A stretch of 64,000 bases of DNA from an uncultured Leptospira sp. (GCA_964509195.1 CAZDWJ010000008.1:61190-125189); one strand, 5' to 3'. Shown: positions 8,250-37,121, numbered from the stretch's first letter. The notes: a model not told the origin generated them from the letters alone. Translations and numbers: made by a program.

Positions 8250-8427
8250 ACATAATTAGTAAAATTTTGGCGCAGGTAAAAATAAGAAACCTACTGCCAT
8301 GCAGTAGGAGCCATCAGCCGGAAGGCATTCAACGGGGGACCCCATCCCCAGTTATAGTAGTGCAGCAACTGTTACAGATGGTAACAGTAAAAAGAATAGC
8401 ACTTTTGTCAATAGAATAAAAAATAAT
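8250..8427 (-). promoter_or_regulatory. structured 5' leader of the antiporter gene: promoter-like element followed by three hairpins, the last a terminator-like stem plus U-tract
   Basis: On the minus strand: TTGACA ... TACTGT, then hairpins CTGTTAC-N5-GTAACAG (8369-8387), GGGG-N-CCCC (about 8335-8349) and CCTACTG-N5-CAGTAGG (8290-8308) followed by TTTCTTATTTTT about 35 nt before the ATG. Confidence 0.3.
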
Positions 8428-17971: not shown

Positions 17972-18796
17972 TTACAATTTTGTACTTACACCAAAGTCAG
18001 CCCACAGGTGATTTTTTAATTTGCTGGCTTTGCCATTGGCATCACCATCATAGTCAATAAAAAAGTCTCTTGCAATTGTGCGTGCATAATTTACTGCCGA
18101 AAAGAACGTAATGCCTTGATAATCATAAAGTGATGAAAATGTTACTCCGCTGTCACTGAAGCCTTTCCTATCAAAATAGGCATTATTGTAGTATGCTATC
18201 CATATGCCGGCTTTAAATGTAAAATTGTTTGCATTCACCAAATCTTTAAAAAGAGTACCTTTAATATATAGGTCCTGATTGACTGGTGTTTCATCGGCCG
18301 TTTCTTCCACATAGTAATCATAGTATACTTCAAGGGTAGGCACAAAATATGAACTATAACTTGCAATTACATATCCTTCAAAGAAGGATGGATCAACTGT
18401 TGCACCTGCACTATCATAAAATGGATAATGAGTATATTTTACTCCAATAGTGCTACTCAATGAATCTTTACTGTAAGCATATTCAATACCGTAGTCAAAC
18501 TCATGATATGTTTTAGCAAGTTTTCTATCACCTTTTTCAGTTGCCATCAAGTAATCCTGGTTGATACCCACAGTAACATATGCTGTTACTCCACTCAATT
18601 CCAGTCCCACTTTTGGCCATAGAACTCCAGCACCCTTGCCATTTAACTCAATACCACGCCACCAGTAGATACTGTTATAGGTAATGCTGAGCGGAAAATA
18701 TAATTTTTTTTCATCTGAGTAGCTTTTACCTGTAACAATAAAGAGACATGTTACACTAAACAAACATAGAATAAGTGTACTGATACTTTTTTTCAT
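17972..18796 (-). CDS. hypothetical secreted protein, probable outer-membrane beta-barrel
   Basis: Signal peptide (MKKSISTLILCLFSVTCLFIV), alternating hydrophobic/aromatic-rich strands, terminal aromatic region. RBS AAGGAG. Confidence 0.45.
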   Translation of the reverse strand: MKKSISTLILCLFSVTCLFIVTGKSYSDEKKLYFPLSITYNSIYWWRGIELNGKGAGVLWPKVGLELSGVTAYVTVGINQDYLMATEKGDRKLAKTYHEFDYGIEYAYSKDSLSSTIGVKYTHYPFYDSAGATVDPSFFEGYVIASYSSYFVPTLEVYYDYYVEETADETPVNQDLYIKGTLFKDLVNANNFTFKAGIWIAYYNNAYFDRKGFSDSGVTFSSLYDYQGITFFSAVNYARTIARDFFIDYDGDANGKASKLKNHLWADFGVSTKL

Positions 18797-19212: not shown

Positions 19213-20190
19213 TCACTTCTTAGCTAGATCGCTAAGAAATACAGTAATAGCTTTTTCTGCTTTGCCCCAGTCAGATTTGACATATTTTGATAACAGGACA
19301 TGATCCCCATTTTCAATTGCAACTTTTCTGCTTAAAGAATGGGGATTTCCATTGTTAAATGTATCGTAAGCCTTCAGCATTGCCTCAACCTGGGCAGAAC
19401 CGTCTTTGTGTTTGTCATCTTTATAATAATAGAGTAGGAGTACAGGACATGAAACTTTTTTGTAAATATCATCATTAGCAATTAGATCTCCAAGATCTAG
19501 CAATGAATGAAGTGATGCCCAGTAATTTTTTTGATACCAGTACATAGTCCAATTATCTTTAGGATCATCATACGGATCATGTCGTTCACGGTAGGTAGTA
19601 AATAGTAACACGGTTTTAAAAAAAGGCCTGAAAAACAGGGCATTCCCTACTGGATTTGCAAAGCGGTAGAATGGTGATACCAGTACAATAGCATCAGGTA
19701 TATCTGGATGCTCTGCGGCAATATAGGTTGCGATGCCTCCCCCCATACTTGTGCCAATGATTACCAGCTTATCTCCCAAAAGTTTTGTCATCTGTGCAGC
19801 TTCTATAGCAGTGTCAAGAAGCTGGTAGTATTCTGTGTTTTTATGATCATCCATGGTGGTACCATGGCCGGGCAATCGCAAATAGTAAGTATTATATTTT
19901 AATTTTTTGGCGATAGTATCTATCACAAATTGGCCCTCACCACGGGAAGCACCATAACCGTGAATGTAGAGCATTGCTATTTTTGTTTTGGGAGCAAACT
20001 TTAAAAGTTTTTCCTCATTGTTAGGTCGAACTCCTTTTTCTTTACTTTCTTTGAGTTTTAATGTGTAATATTCATCAAATGTAGCAGGAAGTTTTTTTTG
20101 ATTGTATGTATAGGTTATATGTGATTGATACGCATCAACTGCAATGAGTGCAGCAATTACAATAGCAAGTCCTATTAATATTTTTTTCAT
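19213..20190 (-). CDS. secreted alpha/beta hydrolase (esterase/lipase-like)
   Basis: Signal peptide and nucleophile elbow GTSMGGG (GxSxG) in an alpha/beta-hydrolase length context (325 aa). Confidence 0.7.
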   Translation of the reverse strand: MKKILIGLAIVIAALIAVDAYQSHITYTYNQKKLPATFDEYYTLKLKESKEKGVRPNNEEKLLKFAPKTKIAMLYIHGYGASRGEGQFVIDTIAKKLKYNTYYLRLPGHGTTMDDHKNTEYYQLLDTAIEAAQMTKLLGDKLVIIGTSMGGGIATYIAAEHPDIPDAIVLVSPFYRFANPVGNALFFRPFFKTVLLFTTYRERHDPYDDPKDNWTMYWYQKNYWASLHSLLDLGDLIANDDIYKKVSCPVLLLYYYKDDKHKDGSAQVEAMLKAYDTFNNGNPHSLSRKVAIENGDHVLLSKYVKSDWGKAEKAITVFLSDLAKK

Positions 20191-20288
20191 ATGGGTCCTC
20201 CTAAGATAATTATTCGATATCGATAAAATAATAAGATATTGAACAGATTAAGTAAAGAAATTTTTAAAAATTTTTTCTTTTTACTATC

Positions 20289-21503
20289 TTAAAACGCCAC
20301 AGCTGTTTTAATGGCTTTATGTAATCCTTTGTTGCTATTTACCTCAATCATTTCTCTGTACAGTTCAATACTGAATGTATGGGTTACCATAGATTCAATA
20401 TCAGGCATTTTTTTCATAAGCTCAATGGCTTTTTCAAAGATATGTTTTTGTTTTCCTGCTTCCTTTACGTAGCCATATCCATATACGCCTTTGACAGTAA
20501 TAAGTTTTAACCACAGCGGTGTTGGATCAAAAGAAAGCTTGGCAGTGATACCAACAAGGCTTACTGTACCCCCGGCACGTGTAATATTTATGGCTTTAGC
20601 AAAAGTTTTTGTTGAGCCAACCGTGTCAAATACTTTATCAAAACCACCTTGCATGATATGTGGACCCATCATGGGTTTATATATTTTTCCTTTTGTAAGT
20701 TCAACTATCTGCGTTTCATTATCTATCACTGTATTTGCCCCGTATTCTAATGCCTTTTCTCTGTGGAATAAAGAAGGCTCCATAATCGCTATGGTAGATC
20801 TAATATTTAATGCTCTCAGTGCTCGAATGAGCATAAGTCCAATAACACCGCAGCCAATGATACATATGCGGTCAGAATTTTGTGGTTTATTATCATAGAT
20901 TGCCTGCAGAGCCACACTTAATGGCTCAGTAAGCACTGCTGCTTTATCGCTGATTGTAGCAGAAACTACAAAAAGCTGTGCGCGGTGTGCAGGCAGATAC
21001 TGCGCAAAGCCGCCGTTGACTTCTTTACAAATTCCAGTAAACATCCCTGGGGCAATACTGCCTTTAGCAAAGTTTTCGCAGTTTGCAGGCCTGCCATTTT
21101 TACACGCCTGGCATAGCGGTTGCTGTCGCACAACACAGGAAAGCATGGGATTTACTACCACACGCTGCCCTTTTTTTAAACCGGTGCCTCCTGGCTCTTC
21201 AATAGTACCACACACCTCATGACCAATCACGCATGGAAATGATGTAAATGGTGAGGCCATGGGCGAGTCATGAAGCTGTATCAGGTTATAATCACTTCCA
21301 CAAAAGCCACAATAGGTGACTTTAACAATGGCCCAGTTTGTATCAAGAGGCTTTGGTGCAGGAATATCTACAAGTTTGAGTGTGCCAAGTTGGCTTTTAT
21401 AGAACACAGATTTTGAAAATGCACCAAGTGTTTTGAGCGCTATCCATTGTGGGACAGTTACATTGAATTGCAGTGCTTTCATATTTTCACATTCATCAAT
21501 CAA
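20289..21503 (-). CDS. zinc-dependent medium-chain dehydrogenase/reductase (MDR alcohol dehydrogenase family)
   Basis: GHEVCGTIEE (the GHE zinc-ligand motif), structural-zinc Cys cluster (CQACKNGRPANC), Rossmann motif IGCGVIGL. The listed start overlaps the upstream TPP-enzyme gene by 8 nt. An alternative ATG is at 21482. Confidence 0.8.
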   Translation of the reverse strand: MIDECENMKALQFNVTVPQWIALKTLGAFSKSVFYKSQLGTLKLVDIPAPKPLDTNWAIVKVTYCGFCGSDYNLIQLHDSPMASPFTSFPCVIGHEVCGTIEEPGGTGLKKGQRVVVNPMLSCVVRQQPLCQACKNGRPANCENFAKGSIAPGMFTGICKEVNGGFAQYLPAHRAQLFVVSATISDKAAVLTEPLSVALQAIYDNKPQNSDRICIIGCGVIGLMLIRALRALNIRSTIAIMEPSLFHREKALEYGANTVIDNETQIVELTKGKIYKPMMGPHIMQGGFDKVFDTVGSTKTFAKAINITRAGGTVSLVGITAKLSFDPTPLWLKLITVKGVYGYGYVKEAGKQKHIFEKAIELMKKMPDIESMVTHTFSIELYREMIEVNSNKGLHKAIKTAVAF

Positions 21504-23151
21504 ATTTCAGCGACTGATAAAAAAGTGGCGTTGCCGGGCTTGTCACTGTCGGATCTGTTAAGACATTTACACATGCTGGTTTGCCGCTTTCCTTTGCACG
21601 GATGAGCGCTGGTGCTATCGCCTCATCCTTATCAACAAATTCGCCATAACAACCCATTCCTTCTACAACCTTTTCGTAGCGGCGAATGCCAAGCTCAGCA
21701 CAGGTCACGCGCTCTTTGCCAATTGAAAGCTCCTGGCTGTGTTTGATCATGCCCCACGCACAGTCATTGTTCACAATGCAGGTAAATGGGATATTATGGC
21801 GCACCGCTGTGTCAAATTCAAATCCGTTAAATCCAAATGAGCCATCGCCTGATAGTACCACCACCTGCTTATTCGGATGAATTAGCTTTGCAGCAATGCC
21901 AAAGGGCACCCCCGCACCAAGGCATCCAAGAAGTCCTGCCGATTGTGATATAACACCTGCTTTGTGTTTAGATTGAAATCCTACCAGGCCAAAGTATGTG
22001 GTATCACCACCATCTACCACATACAGAGCGTCGGTGCCAAACACTTCCTGAATCTTTGCAACCAGCCTGATTGGATGAATTGGATCAGAGGAATTCTGTC
22101 TAAGTTTTATTTCACTGTCAATAAATGCGTATCCTGCCTGAGTCAGCATATCAAGCCACTGTGTATGATCTTTTTGTTCAACAAGTGGCAGTAATGCTTT
22201 GAGTGCTGCGCCTGCATCGCCGTAAAGTCCCACATCAGCTTTTCGGTTGCGGTTGATCTCAGTTGGTTCAATGTCAATGCGTATAACTTTTGTGGTTGGC
22301 GGAATTATTGCCCCCGACTGAAAGAGCCAGTTGAAGCGGATACCGGTCGCAACAATGACATCAGCCTGTGATAGTGTCATCATGAGTCCTACGTTGCCAA
22401 TATTCCATATTGATTGGGGATGATTATCAGGAAGCACTCCGCGTCCACCATTGAGCAAAATAAACGGTATGCCGGTTTTTTCTACAAAAGCCTGTAGTTC
22501 CAGCGCACAGTTGCTATATCCTATACCTGAGCCACCAATAAAAAGTGGCTTTTTAGCAGTGTTGATAATATCAGCAGCTGTGTAAAGGCCTGCCATATCT
22601 GGCACAGGCTTGCAATTATCATAACTTATCTCAAATTCAAAATCATCAACCGACCTGCCCAACACATCTGGCGGCAGTTCTAAAAATACTGGACCTGGCC
22701 TGCCACATGTTGCGTGTCTAAATGCTAAGTCTAAATATTCTGGAATGCGCTTTGTATCATAACAGGTAGCGCACCATTTCACAATGGGCTTTACCACATC
22801 AACCTGATTCATCTCCTGCAGTGCGCCTTTGTGGTCATCACGCAGTGGATGACGTCCGCACAGCACCACAACTGGTGCATTATCTAAATACGCATTTGCA
22901 ATGCCGGTAATGCCGTTGGTAAAACCTGGACCTGCGGTTAGAAAACATACTCCGGGATTTCCGGTATACACTGCCACAGCATGCGCCATCATCACTGCAG
23001 CTTGTTCATGGCGTACATCAATCGACCTTATACCATACTGCTGCAACCCGTCTAACAGCGCTTCAATATGCCCACCTGATATGCCAAATGCAAATTGCAC
23101 ATCACGCTTTGACAAATACTTCCCTATCAAATGGCCACCATTTATAGCCAT
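21496..23151 (-). CDS. thiamine-pyrophosphate enzyme of the 2-hydroxyacyl-CoA lyase / oxalyl-CoA decarboxylase family
   Basis: 551 aa. Blocks remembered from human HACL1 are matched: GVLPDNHPQS (HACL GVVPDNHPYC), QADVIVATGIRFNWL (FADVIVLFGARLNWI), and the TPP motif LSGDGSFGFNGFEFDTAVRHNIPFTCIVNN ([29 protein letters not shown]). Confidence 0.8.
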   Translation of the reverse strand: MAINGGHLIGKYLSKRDVQFAFGISGGHIEALLDGLQQYGIRSIDVRHEQAAVMMAHAVAVYTGNPGVCFLTAGPGFTNGITGIANAYLDNAPVVVLCGRHPLRDDHKGALQEMNQVDVVKPIVKWCATCYDTKRIPEYLDLAFRHATCGRPGPVFLELPPDVLGRSVDDFEFEISYDNCKPVPDMAGLYTAADIINTAKKPLFIGGSGIGYSNCALELQAFVEKTGIPFILLNGGRGVLPDNHPQSIWNIGNVGLMMTLSQADVIVATGIRFNWLFQSGAIIPPTTKVIRIDIEPTEINRNRKADVGLYGDAGAALKALLPLVEQKDHTQWLDMLTQAGYAFIDSEIKLRQNSSDPIHPIRLVAKIQEVFGTDALYVVDGGDTTYFGLVGFQSKHKAGVISQSAGLLGCLGAGVPFGIAAKLIHPNKQVVVLSGDGSFGFNGFEFDTAVRHNIPFTCIVNNDCAWGMIKHSQELSIGKERVTCAELGIRRYEKVVEGMGCYGEFVDKDEAIAPALIRAKESGKPACVNVLTDPTVTSPATPLFYQSLKFD

Positions 23152-23163
23152 AATTCCTCCTGT

Positions 23164-23529
23164 TTATTTTTTGTTTTTATTAAGGGCGATAGTTACTGCA
23201 TCATTAAACCACTGTATAAAAAAAGCCATTCCCTCAACATGAAGGTTGCCTGCTGCTGCCGCATAAAACGATGCTTCTTGAGTTCCATCTTTCAACACAT
23301 TGAATGCGGTTTTTGCATCTGAAAACACCAGCGCAGCATCATAGTGTGCAAGACGCCGCGTTGAAGAGACCACCCCTTTGTTGAAAATGAATGTGCGGCC
23401 TTTGTTGTTTTTTGTTTTTATTGCAATTTTAACATTTACTGTTCCAATGTAGCGCTTAAATGCATTATTGTATTTTGATGCAAATTTTAAGGCCAGTCCC
23501 AGTATGCGAAGTAAGAGAGCGAACCTCAT
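23164..23529 (-). CDS. SCP2 sterol/lipid-carrier domain protein
   Basis: 121 aa. Layout (GRTFIFNKGVVSS...DAALVFSDAKTAFNVLKDG...AAAGNLHVEGMAFFIQ) follows SCP2 domains (ADCT..sd.df..l..Gkl....f..GKLKI.G.M). 12 nt upstream of the TPP-enzyme gene on the same strand. Confidence 0.55.
   Translation of the reverse strand: MRFALLLRILGLALKFASKYNNAFKRYIGTVNVKIAIKTKNNKGRTFIFNKGVVSSTRRLAHYDAALVFSDAKTAFNVLKDGTQEASFYAAAAGNLHVEGMAFFIQWFNDAVTIALNKNKK
23183..23201. repeat. copy of the AGGGCGATAGTTACTGCAT 19-mer (core GGCGATAGTTAC)
   Basis: Identical 19-mer also at 57655-57673. The core 10-mer CGATAGTTAC or its complement also occurs at 33462, 51483, 25625, 43030 and 7669. Confidence 0.5.
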
Positions 23530-23711
23530 TGTACTATCCTTTTATATTTTAAAAATGACAAATACACCTGCAAATGTATAATGAGTTTTGCTATTTTGTA
23601 AATTATTTTTTTTACATATGCTGAAAAAATATGCTTGCGATAAATGCATTTATAGTGTATTATATGTAGAATCTGGAAAAAGCATATAACGCACATAAGA
23701 GGTGATTGACC

Positions 23712-24059
23712 ATGCTTACTGTTTCGGTTAACCAGCTAGGAGATGTTGTAGTAATTGATATAGCAGGTGAGTTTGATATTGATGTAATACGGGATGTAGA
23801 GCAAGCATGGAGCCAGGCATTGAGCAAAAATCCAAAAGTAATAGGATTCAATTGCCTGGAATTAAAATTTATTGATTCATCAGCATTAGGCACTCTGGTT
23901 AAATTTATGAATAGTGCAACAAATAGAAAAATAACATTTACTCTTTTTAATATTTCACCACCAATTGCAACAATTTTTAAAACATCAAAACTGGATAAAT
24001 TTTTCTCAATTAATTCAAAAGAGGATTTTGAGAATAAATATCTTTCTATAAGCAAATAA
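23712..24059 (+). CDS. STAS domain anti-sigma factor antagonist (SpoIIAA-like)
   Basis: 115 aa. MLTVSVNQLGDVVVIDIAGEFD...KFIDSSALGTLVKF is the typical STAS layout. RBS AAGAGGTGA 6 nt before the ATG at 23712. Confidence 0.7.
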   Translation: MLTVSVNQLGDVVVIDIAGEFDIDVIRDVEQAWSQALSKNPKVIGFNCLELKFIDSSALGTLVKFMNSATNRKITFTLFNISPPIATIFKTSKLDKFFSINSKEDFENKYLSISK

Positions 24060-24313
24060 CGGGAATGCAAATTAAGTAAAAAACTTGCAAAATAAACCTA
24101 CCATTTTAGAAATATCTTTGTATGACACAATTTTCATTTAGCGCTATTACTCCCGCTAAAGAGTCAGTCATTTTATGGATACATCAAAAACTGCTTTCAT
24201 TCTGACTTTTAAAATTAAAGAAAGCAATTTTTGCATTTATATGTGTCCATACGGGAACATTCTTAAAATTATTTTTTAGAAGTTCCATTATAATATAAAA
24301 TGGAGGATAGATA

Positions 24314-25510
24314 ATGGCAGACAATGATGTTGTAGTTGTATCGGCATGCAGAACACCAATTGGGAGTTTTGGACAATCGCTTAAGGATGTAAAAGCGTAT
24401 GAGCTTGCTGCACTGGTAATGAAAGAAGCATTACAGCGTGCAGGTATTGAAGGTAGTGCGCTGTCAGATGTTATCTTTGGTAATTGCTTAATGGGATCTG
24501 ATGAGGCTAATGTGGCACGCACTGCTGCATTAAAAGCTGGTATACCTGTAGAGGTGCCTGCAACATCGGTGCAGCGACAGTGTGCTTCAGGTATGACTGC
24601 AGTGGTATTTGGCTCTCAGCAGCTTATTGCAGGGGATTCTGATATTGTACTGGTTGGAGGCGTTGAGTCAATGTCAAATGCTCCCTATGTGTTATGGAAA
24701 GCACGATGGGGACTTCGGCTTACACATTCTGAACTTACCGATGCTATGTGGGAATTGCTCCATTCCGGAAGCGGGCTTTTAGGTGAGCCCTATATTATGG
24801 GACAGACTGCTGAAAATCTGGCGGAAAAATATACTATATCACGTGAAGAACAGGATCAGGTAGCGTATGAAAGCCATAAAAAGGCAGCTGCAGCTATTGA
24901 TTCAGGAAGATTTAAGGATGAGATAGTTCCTGTCCCCATACCGCAGAAAAAAGGGGAACCTAAACTATTTGAAAACGATGAACATGTACGCCGTGATGTA
25001 ACACTGGAGAGCCTGGCAGCATTAAAACCCGCCTTTAAAAAGAATGGCACGGTGACAGCAGGCAATGCATCAGGAATTAATGATGGCGCTGCTGCACTGG
25101 TACTTACCACAGCCAAACGCGCACAGGAGTTGGGAGTAAAACCGTTAGCGCGTATTGCTGCAAATGCTTTTGCAGGTGTAGAGCCACATCTTATGGGATA
25201 TGGCCCTGTACCGGCAGTGACAAAGCTTCTTAAAAAAACCGGAAAAAAATTAGATGACATAAACCTGATTGAACTCAATGAAGCATTTGCTGCGCAGTAT
25301 CTTGCCTGTGAGAAGGGATTAGGGCTTGACCGCAGCAAAGTGAATGTGAACGGTTCGGGCATTGCGCTGGGGCATCCTGTTGGATGTACCGGTGCACGAA
25401 TAATTGTTTCGCTCATATATGAACTAAAGAAGCGCAATGCTCAATGGGGGATTGCAACTTTGTGTGTTGGCGGAGGAATGGGCGGTGCAGTACTTGTAGA
25501 GAATATATAG
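24314..25510 (+). CDS. acetyl-CoA C-acetyltransferase (thiolase II)
   Basis: 398 aa. VVVVSACRTPIGSFGQSLKDV N-terminus with active-site Cys, C-terminal GIALGHPVGCTGARI and CVGGGMG motifs. Confidence 0.9.
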   Translation: MADNDVVVVSACRTPIGSFGQSLKDVKAYELAALVMKEALQRAGIEGSALSDVIFGNCLMGSDEANVARTAALKAGIPVEVPATSVQRQCASGMTAVVFGSQQLIAGDSDIVLVGGVESMSNAPYVLWKARWGLRLTHSELTDAMWELLHSGSGLLGEPYIMGQTAENLAEKYTISREEQDQVAYESHKKAAAAIDSGRFKDEIVPVPIPQKKGEPKLFENDEHVRRDVTLESLAALKPAFKKNGTVTAGNASGINDGAAALVLTTAKRAQELGVKPLARIAANAFAGVEPHLMGYGPVPAVTKLLKKTGKKLDDINLIELNEAFAAQYLACEKGLGLDRSKVNVNGSGIALGHPVGCTGARIIVSLIYELKKRNAQWGIATLCVGGGMGGAVLVENI

Positions 25511-25558
25511 TTTGCTCCTTATGCTAGATTTGCTAATAGTACCAAACTCTATTTAGCA

Positions 25559-25598
25559 AAGAGCAAAACATTCACAGGGTGGTTATACACCCTGTGAA
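25559..25598 (+). terminator. rho-independent terminator of the thiolase gene
   Basis: CATTCACAGGGTG-GTTATA-CACCCTGTGAATG (13-bp perfect stem) followed by GTATTTTT. Confidence 0.75.
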
Positions 25599-25735
25599 TG
25601 GTATTTTTCCGGCAATGATTGAGGGTAACTATCGCCAAAACTGCCATAAAAAACTGAAAATATATAAAAGAATGATACATTTTTTACTATCATAATCCCG
25701 TATAATCAAAACCATTTATGTAAAAGGATACTGTT

Positions 25736-26995
25736 ATGGGCATGACAATTACTGAAAAAATATTAGCTGCACATGCCGGGAAGGAATATGTTGAGCCAGG
25801 CGAACTGATTGAAGCTAAAGTTGATCTTGTATTGGGAAATGATATTACTGCTCCTATAGCAATAAAAGAATTTGAAGAGTTAGGAATTGATAAAGTTTTT
25901 GATAATGAAAAAATAGCACTCATCCCTGACCACTTTACTCCCAATAAAGATATTAAATCTGCTGAGCAGGTTAAAATATTACGGGAATTTGCAAGAAAAT
26001 ACAGTATCATCCATTTTTATGATGTAGGAAGAGTGGGCGTTGAGCATGCACTGCTGCCTGAACTTGGCCTGGTACGGCCAGGTATGTGTATTATTGGTGC
26101 TGATTCGCATACGTGTACCTATGGCGCATTTGGTGCGTTTTCAACCGGTGTTGGCTCAACCGATATGGCTGCTGCAATGGCAACCGGCAAAACCTGGTTT
26201 AAGGTGCCTGAGTCAATCAAATTTGTTGTGTATGGAAAACTGCAACCGTATGTTTCGGCAAAGGATATCATTTTGCATATTATTGGCAGCATTGGCGTTG
26301 ATGGTGCTTTATATAAATCTATGGAATTTACCGGTGAGACAATCCATGAGCTATCAATGGAAGGCAGGATGACCATTGCCAATATGGCGATAGAAGCTGG
26401 TGCTAAAAATGGTATTTTTGCGCCTGATGGTAAGACTATTGAGTATATAAAAAGTCGTACAGGACTGCCGTATACGCTATATTACAGTGATGAAAATGCA
26501 CGATACAGCGATGTAAAAGAATACGATGCATCCACAATAGAACCAACAGTATCATTCCCCCATCTGCCAGAAAATACAAAACCTGCGCGCGAGTCAGGAG
26601 TACCAATTGACCAGGTGGTTATTGGCTCATGTACCAATGGACGTATAGAGGATTTACGGGTGGCAGCTAAGATTCTGAAAGGGCGAAAAGTCCATAAAGA
26701 TGTGCGTTTGCTCATCATCCCTGCTACTCAGGAAGTGTATCGCAAAGCGTTAGAAGAAGGATTGATTGATATCTTTATTGAAGCCGAAGCCGCTGTGTCA
26801 GCTCCTACCTGCGGTCCCTGTCTGGGTGGTCATATGGGAATTTTAGCTGAAGGTGAACGGTGTGTAGCTACAACCAACAGAAACTTTGTTGGCAGAATGG
26901 GTCATCCAAAAAGCGAAGTGTATCTGGCAAGCCCTGCGGTGGCGGCAGCATCTGCGATTTTAGGAAGGATTGCTCATCCAGATGAAGTGAAGTAA
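25736..26995 (+). CDS. leuC: 3-isopropylmalate/(R)-citramalate/homoaconitate dehydratase large subunit (short archaeal-type aconitase-family LeuC)
   Basis: 419 aa. [14 protein letters not shown]-terminus and Fe-S ligand cysteines ([11 protein letters not shown]; [12 protein letters not shown]). Exact substrate is not assignable from sequence. Confidence 0.8.
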
Positions 26996-27020
26996 AAAGA
27001 GCTATCGCCAAAAAATAACG

Positions 27021-27527
27021 ATGAGGTATAGTATGAAGGCATACGGAAAAGTATGGAAATTTGGCAACGATGTAAATACCGATGAGATAATACCTGCACG
27101 ATATCTTAACACATCAGATCCTGATGAGCTTGCACAGCACTGCATGGAAGATGCTGATCCTGAATTTATGAAAAAGGCTAAGGCTGGTGATATTATCGTT
27201 GCTGGGAAAAATTTTGGGTGTGGCTCTTCACGTGAGCATGCTCCCATTGCTATAAAAGCTGCAAAGATATCATGCGTTATTGCCGAGTCGTTTGCGCGCA
27301 TATTTTACCGAAACAGCATCAACATTGGGCTTCCCATCATTGAGTCAGAAGAAGCGGCACGTGACATAGCTGAAGGCGATGAGATTGAAATTGATTTTGA
27401 CTCAGGGGTTATTAAAAATATTACAAAGAACAAAGAATATAAAGCTAAACCATTTCCACCATTTATGCAGGATATTATTGCAAAAGGTGGGCTTATGGCC
27501 AAGGTTAAAGCTGAACTAAAAAAATAG
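27021..27527 (+). CDS. leuD: dehydratase small subunit (short LeuD type)
   Basis: 168 aa. [21 protein letters not shown] and [14 protein letters not shown] motifs. Confidence 0.8.
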
Positions 27528-36110: not shown

Positions 36111-37121
36111 TTGTGGACAAAAACCATGATTAAAATTGCTGAATTGCTTCCCCCGCGCCCTTCTGCATTGTGGACCATGGTAAAGCAATGTGGAATAGAG
36201 TATGTTGTTGGCGGTATGCAGCATTACGCTGGCTGGGAAAATATGCCAAAGGACTTCTGGCCATGGAGCTATAATTCACTGGTTCATATTAAGACCAATT
36301 ATGAAAACGGAGGATTTACGCTTGGAGTCATTGAATCCCGACCTCCAATGGAAAAAATAAAATTAGGCCTGCCGGGAAGGGATGAAGAAATTGAAAATGT
36401 CATAATGCTTATACAGAACATGGGGAAACTGGGCATTCCCGTATGGTGTTATGAATGGATGCCCGTGTTTGGTTGGACAAGGACTTCAACAACAACGCCC
36501 ATCCGCGGGGGTGCAATGGCTACCTCTTATGATCATGCACTAATGGAAAAGGCTCCAATGACTGAGTACGGAATTGTAACCGAAGAAACATTATGGAAAA
36601 ATCTACAGTATTTTCTAAACGCCGTTATCCCTGAAGCAGAAAAAGCAGGTGTAAAATTAGCCATGCATCCAGATGATCCACCCATTTCTCCTATTCGCGG
36701 TGTTGCGCGTATTATGCGCTCGGTTGAACATTTTCAAAAGTTACTGGATCTTTATCCAAGTGAGTTTAATGGCATTGCATTGTGTCAGGGTAATTTTGCA
36801 TTGATGACGGATGATCTTCCTGCTGTAATCAGAAAATTTGGAAAACAGGGTAAAATCTTTTTTGTCCATTTCAGGAATGTAAAGGGAACCGCACACAAAT
36901 TTACTGAAACATTTCATGACGATGGGATGATTGATATGTACGAATGCATGAAGGCATACTATGAGATTGGCTATGAGGGACTGATGCGTCCTGATCATGT
37001 TCCCACTATGGAAGGCGATAGCAATGATAATCCTGCCTATTCCTCAATTGGTAGGCTTTTTGCCATTGGGTACATAAAGGGCCTGGCGGAAGCAGTTGAA
37101 AAAAATCAATGCGGAAGGTGA
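36111..37121 (+). CDS. uxuA: D-mannonate dehydratase
   Basis: Conserved blocks match E. coli UxuA: VWCYEWMPVFGWTRT (VCYNFMPVLDWTRT), AMHPDDPPISPIRGVARI (AVHPDDPPRPILGLPRI), MRPDHV...AYSSIGRLFAIGYIKGLAEA (MRPDHG...GYSAIGRLKGLAEVRGV). Confidence 0.85.
   Translation: MWTKTMIKIAELLPPRPSALWTMVKQCGIEYVVGGMQHYAGWENMPKDFWPWSYNSLVHIKTNYENGGFTLGVIESRPPMEKIKLGLPGRDEEIENVIMLIQNMGKLGIPVWCYEWMPVFGWTRTSTTTPIRGGAMATSYDHALMEKAPMTEYGIVTEETLWKNLQYFLNAVIPEAEKAGVKLAMHPDDPPISPIRGVARIMRSVEHFQKLLDLYPSEFNGIALCQGNFALMTDDLPAVIRKFGKQGKIFFVHFRNVKGTAHKFTETFHDDGMIDMYECMKAYYEIGYEGLMRPDHVPTMEGDSNDNPAYSSIGRLFAIGYIKGLAEAVEKNQCGR

Follow-up and report, generated by a model that had tools for sequence, protein, structure and literature searches.

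Positions 19,213 to 23,529 of a 64,000-nucleotide stretch of DNA from an uncultured Leptospira sp. (GCA_964509195.1 CAZDWJ010000008.1:61190-125189; the whole stretch is referred to as the window) harbor three tightly packed genes, which encode a small protein with a predicted SCP2 fold, an enzyme dependent on thiamine diphosphate (ThDP) and a zinc-dependent medium-chain dehydrogenase/reductase (MDR). This three-gene cassette is conserved across phyla in many strictly anaerobic bacteria. What is new is a clade of ThDP-dependent lyases with a dedicated SCP2-fold partner that is conserved in anaerobes. Full-text literature searches retrieved no relevant paper on this gene combination, nor any paper in which an SCP2-fold protein dedicated to a ThDP enzyme is described. 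A preliminary description of the locus had proposed an alpha-oxidation-like module centered on a 2-hydroxyacyl-CoA lyase (HACL), and had noted a hydrolase and a thiolase encoded nearby. The packed and conserved set of SCP2-fold protein, ThDP enzyme and Zn-MDR stands, whereas the enzyme falls outside every characterized HACL group and neither hydrolase nor thiolase is a conserved partner. The cassette is composed as follows:

23164-23529, minus strand: gene for the SCP2-fold protein, 121 amino acids (aa) (six-frame listing of open reading frames; ribosome-binding site AAGGA 5' of the ATG)
23152-23163, minus strand: intergenic gap of 12 nucleotides (nt) from the SCP2-like stop to the start of the ThDP enzyme, reading ACAGGAGGAATT and containing AGGAGG
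21496-23151, minus strand: gene for the ThDP-dependent enzyme, 551 aa (six-frame listing of open reading frames; Pfam TPP_enzyme_N/M/C)
20289-21482, minus strand: gene for the Zn-dependent MDR dehydrogenase, 397 aa, revised start ATG 21482 (Pfam ADH_N and ADH_zinc_N; N-termini of homologues)

The co-directional trio running from 23529 to 20289 was recovered in the six-frame listing as it had been described before, and the 12-nt gap in front of the ThDP-enzyme gene carries a strong ribosome-binding site. The 8-nt overlap formerly noted between the stop of the ThDP-enzyme gene and the start of the MDR gene turned out to be an artefact of the longest open reading frame, which opens with TTG at 21503. 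Since about 60 MDR homologues begin with MKALQF, and since a public contig encoding the identical protein has the gene independently called at 397 aa with a start 13 nt past the upstream stop, the MDR start is placed at ATG 21482 and the true gap amounts to 13 nt.

Occurrence of the cassette in anaerobic bacteria

A scan of one genome per species yielded more than 576 relatives of the ThDP enzyme, the best 80 of which (51-84% identity) were taken together with their flanks and analyzed by calling of open reading frames, BLAST, clustering and hidden Markov models (HMMs). These loci stem from metagenome-assembled genomes (MAGs) of Spirochaetota/Leptospirales, from Smithella and other Syntrophales, from Desulfobacterales and Desulfatiglandales, as well as from a few Chloroflexi and Actinobacteria bins. 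Judged by its homologues, the window itself stems from an uncultured member of the Spirochaetota. Two carriers of the Desulfobacterales, Desulfatibacillum alkenivorans DSM 16219 and Desulfosarcina widdelii PP31, have been cultured. In 63 of the 80 loci, an SCP2-like gene of the same orientation lies directly upstream of the ThDP-enzyme gene, which bears out the co-occurrence in related genomes that had been put forward as a check on the initial proposal, and in 65 an MDR gene adjoins the ThDP-enzyme gene. The order of genes is SCP2-TPP-MDR in Spirochaetota and Syntrophales and MDR-SCP2-TPP in Desulfobacterales. Gene calls in public records agree with this order, which is also found for a representative of a cluster at 50% identity. 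With a recurrence of the trio in about 64 of 81 loci, each from another species, chance is far from sufficient to explain the linkage, and such conserved synteny shows that the three products work together.

Of the 17 loci in which no SCP2-like gene was seen at this place, four lie at the end of a contig, and the other 13 belong together as a divergent subclade. Members of this subclade (51-59% identity; L070, L073-L076 and L078-L085) have an adjacent MDR gene in 10 of 13 cases, with none in L075, L084 and L085, and a classical short-chain dehydrogenase/reductase (SDR) is often encoded upstream in place of the SCP2-like protein.

Besides the trio, several accessory genes recur:

33 loci: extended SDR with Epimerase/3beta-HSD/NAD_binding_4 (fatty-acyl-reductase-like) domains
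22 loci: VOC/Glyoxalase_4 protein
21 loci: divergent TetR regulator
9 loci: acyl-CoA synthetase
5 loci: acyl-CoA dehydrogenase (ACAD)

AraC regulators are present in some of the loci as well. Altogether, these accessory genes fit redox chemistry on lipids and an inducible catabolism.

The closest named relative, the Spirochaetia genome UBA2205 (L007), deviates from the common arrangement. Just two remnants of its MDR (aa 1-28 and 287-397) are left, and a gene for a D-isomer-specific 2-hydroxyacid dehydrogenase is situated between the ThDP-enzyme gene and the MDR remnant (L007 9952-10920 and 10971-11370). This exchange of the dehydrogenase may represent a non-orthologous displacement or an assembly artefact of the MAG. 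It hints at a partner dehydrogenase that handles an alpha-hydroxy-carbonyl or carboxyl function. In another locus (L006 3493-8304), a gene for an FGGY-family sugar kinase starts 22 nt after the cassette and is followed by genes for a NifS-like cysteine desulfurase, ThiM and ThiE, so that thiamine-salvage genes (thiM, thiE) are found beside the gene of a thiamine-dependent enzyme.

The ThDP enzyme and its two partners

The 551-aa enzyme comprises all three ThDP domains (Pfam TPP_enzyme_N/M/C) and, with all curated NCBIfam models scanned, reaches none of the cut-offs. Its best match is PRK05858, named ‘acetolactate synthase’ (397 versus a cut-off of 587), followed by the actinobacterial HACL model HdaclCoAlyACT (345 versus 600). 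TIGR00118 (321 versus 538), the oxalyl-CoA decarboxylase (OXC) model PRK09259 (275 versus 557) and TIGR03254 (255 versus 739) are likewise missed. The ranking of solved sequences in the PDB is shallow, with 268 bits for AcHACL, the actinobacterial 2-hydroxyisobutyryl-CoA lyase (PDB 7PT1-4; 32% identity), 262 for HACS, 257 for RuHACL, 244 for benzaldehyde lyase (BAL) from Pseudomonas fluorescens (PDB 2AG0/3D7K; engineered derivative formolase) and 222 for OXC. An AlphaFold2 (AF2) model has a pLDDT of 75.8, with values below 50 in the active-site loops. Its Foldseek matches to HACS, OXC, AcHACL and BAL all lie between E 1e-43 and 1e-38 and provide no discrimination; those to the HACL1-type enzymes (RuHACL, ApbHACS, TbHACS) and OXC range from 1e-43 to 1e-39 at TM 0.8-0.85. 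More than 7800 homologues were found, the best 120 of them at 65-95% identity, and they are annotated at source as ‘acetolactate synthase’ or ‘thiamine pyrophosphate-binding protein’.

Family members were further aligned with reference sequences, which were drawn from E. coli genes and from PDB chains aligned by HMMER, and a neighbor-joining distance tree was calculated with 100 bootstraps and few references. In this tree, the ThDP family is monophyletic (100%) and falls within a superclade of AcHACL, BAL and OXC/HACS (100%), apart from IlvI, Gcl and PoxB. In 69% of the replicates it is joined with AcHACL and BAL and in only 8% with OXC and HACS; it is sister to AcHACL in 45% and to BAL in 41%. 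Identity to every reference is 25-32%, with 31.6% for BAL, from which the family is also set apart by its own invariant C-terminal TDPTVTSPATPLFYQSLK tail. By its position in the tree, the enzyme is shown to represent a previously undescribed clade in the BAL/AcHACL/HACS/OXC superclade. It is thus placed inside neither the OXC nor the acetolactate-synthase clades and, with the SCP2 fold of the small protein, the initial proposal survives these two of its stated grounds for rejection. Of the proposed HACL membership, the neighborhood of the HACL/OXC superfamily remains, although the family lies outside every characterized HACL group as a separate clade that scores below the cut-offs. Similarly, all three peptide blocks that had been quoted as HACL hallmarks are present in the protein, but PDNHPQS, RFNWL and GDGSFGF are common to OXC, HACS, AcHACL or BAL and not specific for HACL; blocks of the PDNHP and RxNW type are shared with the HACL1-type enzymes and OXC.

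Residue counts over 200 members of the ThDP family allow a closer look at the active site. The cofactor-activating Glu (E49) and the GDG...NN motif for Mg-ThDP (D436, N462) are invariant, and by these residues the 551-aa protein is a functional ThDP enzyme. Acyl-CoA is bound by R260/R400 in ApbHACS (PMC11271303) and by Q255, R273, S274, R362, R417, D561 and K564 in AcHACL, in which E493 acts as catalytic base and Q128 contacts the substrate (PMC8760513). Both Arg columns (AcHACL R273/R417 = ApbHACS R260/R400) contain Arg in all five CoA-dependent references. In contrast, the window enzyme is non-Arg at both, with a longer loop resembling that of acetolactate synthase (ALS) at the first (IWNIGNVGLMM) and YFGLVGF at the second, and the surrounding stretches are Arg-free in 197 (first) and 184 (second) of the 200 members. 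The position of AcHACL Q255 is an invariant Asn, and the column of E493 holds Ile or Val in 200/200. In a pairwise alignment, which is uncertain in both regions, Asn is found at S274 and Phe at R362. Inspection of these residues, as had been suggested for recognizing an HACL, hence speaks against this identity, since both acyl-CoA-binding Arg and E493 are missing. The GIP loop of OXC/HACS, NNGGIY (OXC Y483) and the Y-E pair of OXC are also absent from the family alignment. At these signature sites of OXC, HACS and AcHACL, the window enzyme reads SGGHI, L-Q and NNDCAWGMIKHSQ, with Q in place of the Y-E pair. It shares with AcHACL the GGH, the L-Q, the alpha-helix after the NN motif and the lack of the OXC GIP loop, while it lacks the long C-terminal lid domain of AcHACL.

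Several active-site residues match those of BAL instead, an enzyme of the same superclade that has the three-domain ThDP fold in common with the family and, apparently, the lack of a CoA site. H28 (199/200 members) and Q112 (200/200) occupy the columns of BAL H29 and Q113, which we take to be the catalytic His and Gln of that enzyme; literature searches on the roles of BAL residues brought up no relevant paper. Moreover, the helix W466-G467-M-I-K-H471-S-Q473 is identical to W478-G479-A-T-L-H483-F-Q485 of BAL at W, G, H and Q, so that the pattern W-G-x3-H-x-Q is kept in the window family. The pocket positions in between differ (M468/I469/K470/S472 versus A480/T481/L482/F484), and K470 is invariant in the family, a column at which IlvI has Lys as well.

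The 121-aa protein, annotated at source as ‘hypothetical’, has no match in Pfam, NCBIfam or PDB sequence searches, and PF02036 is not matched even at E=10. An AF2 model built on an alignment of its close relatives is nevertheless of high confidence (pLDDT 89.6, pTM 0.82) and displays the topology H-H-E-E-E-E-H-H-E-H. The best 45 Foldseek matches in the PDB are all SCP2 folds (E 1.6e-5 and up, TM 0.6-0.67), led by UbiJ-SCP2 (E 1.6e-5, TM 0.63-0.67) and including the SCP2 proteins of Thermus, yeast, human and insect as well as the SCP2-like C-domains of alkylsulfatases. The SCP2 fold is thus predicted confidently and the earlier assignment holds at fold level, for a divergent subfamily that Pfam leaves unassigned. 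In predicted fold and size, the protein resembles SCP2 proteins that belong to enzyme complexes, such as UbiJ/UbiT of ubiquinone synthesis, peroxisomal SCP2/SCPx and the alkylsulfatase domains, yet identity to solved SCP2s is just 13-17%. Close relatives number 13 in a word-indexed database, all from uncultured bacteria, and each of them with a named taxon belongs to a Spirochaetota/Spirochaetes MAG.

An exhaustive profile search extended the SCP2-like HMM family to 123 cluster representatives, among which some remote members exceed the Pfam SCP2 cut-off, such as P0186 (23.0 versus 21.3 bits). In five proteins of about 420 aa (P0151, P0176, P0186, P0192 and P0211, of which the first three were scanned), the SCP2-like domain is fused N-terminally to an enzyme resembling 3-hydroxyisobutyrate dehydrogenase, and in P0233 (558 aa) it is fused to a molybdopterin oxidoreductase resembling pyrogallol hydroxytransferase. 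These fusions suggest a general substrate-binding module for anaerobic redox enzymes. The genomic contexts of the remote relatives, namely a locus for a Mo-hydroxylase and tungstate transport and a 3-hydroxyisobutyrate-dehydrogenase fusion beside TetR, gave no pointer to a substrate.

The third protein combines a GroES-like and a Rossmann domain (Pfam ADH_N and ADH_zinc_N), and its translation reveals the catalytic-zinc ligands Cys/His/Glu (CGFCGSD, GHE in GHEVCG), a structural-zinc Cys cluster (C-x7-C-x2-C-x7-C) and GCGVIG for GxGxxG. The domains and zinc ligands bear out the zinc dehydrogenase that had been recognized initially. No NCBIfam cut-off is reached, and the closest solved relatives, at 91 bits or less, are 4ej6 (a Zn-dehydrogenase from Sinorhizobium), (R,R)-butanediol dehydrogenase, RspB and the sorbitol, L-idonate and L-threonine dehydrogenases. 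Judged by these motifs and relatives, the MDR is a Zn-dependent enzyme of the polyol/secondary-alcohol type. It differs from solved members of this type by about 50 additional residues, among them an inserted hydrophobic segment (MKALQFNVTVPQWIALKTLGAFSKSVFYKS...) that directly follows the first strand, spans about 25 aa and is kept across the family.

Candidate chemistry

From the conserved cassette, the predicted folds, the missing CoA-binding Arg and the BAL-like residues, we infer a substrate class, a reaction direction and a role for the carrier. The reading that is tentatively preferred, as possible rather than probable, is a BAL-like, CoA-independent and oxygen-independent acyloin-type cleavage or ligation of C-C bonds on a lipophilic substrate, with the SCP2-fold protein presenting the substrate and the MDR handling the neighboring carbonyl. 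ThDP would attack the carbonyl of an alpha-hydroxy-carbonyl compound of the acyloin or 2-hydroxy-aldehyde type that is not bound to CoA. Breakage of the C-C bond would then release two carbonyl fragments, analogous to the reversible cleavage of alpha-hydroxyketones into two aldehydes by BAL, and carboligation in the reverse direction would be equally possible. The MDR may either oxidize a vicinal diol or secondary alcohol to the alpha-hydroxyketone or reduce the released aldehyde to an alcohol. Its closest solved relatives act on secondary alcohols beside another functional group (butanediol, sorbitol, idonate, threonine), which supports such a role. By analogy to UbiJ, the SCP2-fold protein could hold the hydrophobic substrate or product and pass it on to the two soluble enzymes. 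It may also play the part of a small regulatory subunit as in acetohydroxyacid synthase (AHAS), a notion that is here folded into the idea of a substrate-presenting subunit; a gene for a small regulatory (ACT) subunit was not found near the cassette. Since TetR or AraC regulators adjoin the cassette in other genomes, an inducible catabolic role is suggested, in which a lipid chain would be cut independently of oxygen where beta-oxidation is blocked.

Several observations weigh against this reading. The best-scoring solved sequences are still HACLs (268 bits for AcHACL versus 244 for BAL), and the sister placement is split between AcHACL (45%) and BAL (41%). BAL itself takes aromatic acyloins, originates from an aerobic Pseudomonas without an SCP2 or MDR partner and shares only about 32% identity with the window enzyme. 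The AF2 model is poor in the active-site loops and gives no guide to the shape of the pocket, and CoA could bind in another way despite the absence of the two Arg. Furthermore, the divergent subclade keeps the MDR without an SCP2 gene, which implies that the chemistry does not strictly need the carrier, and the 2-hydroxyacid dehydrogenase in place of the MDR in UBA2205 hints at a 2-hydroxy or 2-oxo acid as substrate.

The function proposed at the outset, a genuine HACL that splits 2-hydroxy (or 3-methyl-branched 2-hydroxy) acyl-CoA into formyl-CoA and an aldehyde shortened by one carbon, would amount to a bacterial alpha-oxidation in which SCP2 carries the chain and the MDR processes the aldehyde. 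HACL and HACS are indeed the closest solved sequences and folds, the actinobacterial HACL model ranks second in NCBIfam, and the placement beside AcHACL in 45% of the bootstraps as well as the common GGH and L-Q agree with such an enzyme. The SCP2 partner also echoes peroxisomal SCP2/SCPx, and acyl-CoA synthetase and ACAD genes accompany the cassette in a minority of loci. All the same, this function appears unlikely given the family-wide loss of both acyl-CoA-binding Arg, the replacement of Q255 by an invariant Asn and of E493 by Ile/Val, the missing GIP and NNGGIY motifs and a score of 345 against an equivalog cut-off of 600. A formyl-CoA transferase (frc) or an oxalate transporter is not encoded near the cassette, and acyl-CoA synthetase is no regular neighbor (only 9/80 loci). 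Being strict anaerobes, the hosts could not make 2-hydroxyacyl-CoA by an O2-dependent hydroxylase either. Hence, shortening of lipids by one carbon or at a C-C bond is possible, but it probably does not proceed via 2-hydroxyacyl-CoA and formyl-CoA.

An alpha-oxidation without CoA can also be envisaged, in which the dehydrogenase makes a 2-oxo acid from a 2-hydroxy (fatty) acid and the ThDP enzyme decarboxylates it or, in the fashion of ALS, ligates it to give the n-1 aldehyde or an acyloin, again with SCP2 as lipid carrier. The MDR remnants and the D-isomer-specific 2-hydroxyacid dehydrogenase that follows the ThDP-enzyme gene in UBA2205 would find an explanation here, although this displacement occurs in a single MAG and is possibly an assembly artefact, and although polyol-type MDRs are not typical 2-hydroxyacid dehydrogenases. 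The fusions of SCP2-like domains to 3-hydroxyisobutyrate-dehydrogenase-like enzymes elsewhere point in the same direction, as do the best NCBIfam match (‘acetolactate synthase’ PRK05858, 397 bits), the ALS-like long loop that replaces the Arg-bearing loop and the invariant K470, a possible carboxylate ligand together with H471 of the active-site helix. With the family set apart from ALS, Gcl and PoxB at 100% bootstrap and under all ALS cut-offs, and with no catalytic dyad of the decarboxylase type identified, this variant has a low probability.

Still less probable is a biosynthetic cassette that joins a fatty aldehyde and a small donor (pyruvate, glyoxylate or a formaldehyde equivalent) to a long-chain acyloin, which the MDR then converts into a vicinal diol as membrane lipid or signal, with SCP2 carrying the product. 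Enzymes of the BAL and AHAS types carry out carboligations efficiently, and the frequent extended SDR with its fatty-acyl-reductase-like domain (NAD_binding_4) could supply the aldehyde. The TetR/AraC regulators and the occasional ACAD or acyl-CoA synthetase look catabolic, however, no glycosyl- or acyl-transferase is consistently linked, and we know of no such diol or acyloin lipid from these lineages. AHAS and butanediol dehydrogenase have been combined to yield beta,gamma-alkanediols, which counts in favor of a biosynthetic function (PMC13104072).

Finally, the ketone-activating (formylating) ThDP enzyme with which the sulfate reducers Desulfococcus biacutus and Desulfosarcina cetonica have been proposed to degrade acetone, with the MDR as a secondary-alcohol dehydrogenase feeding in ketones, was dropped as a most improbable identity: even though relatives exist in Desulfobacterales, including Desulfosarcina, and an uncharacterized ThDP enzyme and a Zn-MDR are induced by acetone in D. 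biacutus (PMC4103992, PMC5123277), the acetone-induced ThDP enzyme of D. cetonica has 77.6 kDa (PMC7888143, Table 1) versus about 60 kDa here, its cluster has a B12 mutase that is absent from all 80 loci, the D. biacutus MDR has 38 kDa, is not encoded beside the ThDP gene and is missing in D. cetonica, and the presumed product of the reaction is a CoA ester, whereas the CoA-binding Arg are missing here.

Genomic surroundings and biological meaning

Downstream and upstream of the cassette, the following features were assigned:

19213-20190, minus strand: alpha/beta hydrolase gene, 325 aa (S33/Hydrolase_4-like, GTSMGGG; Pfam)
19214-19241, minus strand: terminator-like hairpin and T-run at the hydrolase gene's end (consensus match only)
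23533-23602, minus strand: promoter-like hexamer pairs 5' of the SCP2-like gene (consensus matches only; number not above shuffled expectation)

The AT-rich gap of 98 nt before the hydrolase gene contains an AGGAGG of its own and a weak promoter-like site, and downstream of the cassette the hairpin at the end of this gene is the sole site that resembles a terminator. The scan of the locus for promoters and terminators does not outdo the expectation from shuffled sequence, and its matches serve as description only. From the layout, it is plausible that three or four genes, i. e. the trio with or without the hydrolase, share one transcript.

The GTSMGGG nucleophile elbow is indeed present in the hydrolase, as is a hydrophobic segment at its N-terminus, but the designation as a secreted lipase is not established. 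It is absent from 79 of the 80 related loci, and from the UBA2205 locus as well, and is no conserved partner. D. widdelii encodes a homologue with 28% identity at a distance of about 5 kb from its cassette, as well as a Gcw_chp outer-membrane beta-barrel (L058 15918-16664) in the same vicinity. Downstream of the hydrolase gene, the window encodes a signal-peptide protein of 274 aa (17972-18796, minus strand) that has no Pfam match and shares only a short WRG motif with the D. widdelii barrel, a negligible similarity. The thiolase gene that had been pointed out is present 1.1 kb away (24314-25510), but it comes only after a STAS gene and is not conserved as a partner. While the window is collinear with the UBA2205 locus from 21.5 to 32.5 kb at about 74% DNA identity, the segment with the thiolase gene is an insertion (window 24031-25648 versus L007 6949-7004), and the gene is absent from UBA2205. 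Over the 80 loci, none of these neighbors (hydrolase, thiolase, STAS gene and the beta-barrel-like protein of 274 aa) proved to be a conserved partner, the arrangement in D. widdelii being the sole echo.

Adjoining the thiolase gene is a pair of genes for aconitase-family large and small subunits (window 25736-27527, plus strand; 419 and 168 aa; LeuC/LeuD-like by inspection), whose position is kept in UBA2205. Further apart, the window contains a fluoride riboswitch (8298-8358, minus strand; Rfam RF01734, 43.8 bits versus a gathering score of 34) as its sole Rfam match, as well as an unusually long tRNA-Tyr (GTA) of 92 nt (36794-36885, plus strand), the sole tRNA in 64 kb.

Taken together, the analysis defines two protein families for which databases have either no annotation or just a generic name. 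Anaerobes growing on fatty acids and hydrocarbons, such as Smithella, Desulfobacterales and free-living spirochaetes, face lipids that beta-oxidation cannot handle, including 2-hydroxy, keto, diol and branched compounds. The O2-dependent hydroxylases and Baeyer-Villiger enzymes to which aerobes resort are not at their disposal, and how they manage is poorly known. It is conceivable, albeit somewhat unlikely, that the cassette represents an unrecognized route in strict anaerobes, independent of both O2 and CoA, to break or make a C-C bond beside an oxygenated lipid carbon, with a new ThDP-lyase family and a dedicated SCP2-fold subunit that takes up the water-insoluble substrate; such a route would correspond in function to alpha-oxidation, but in anaerobes and with other components. 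Relatives of the enzyme such as BAL, HACS and OXC are prized carboligases for C1 and acyloin biocatalysis, and a clade that evolved for hydrophobic substrates with a built-in delivery protein would, if true, be of practical interest. In any case, the cassette provides a concrete candidate for such anaerobic lipid chemistry, which can be tested directly in two cultured strains.

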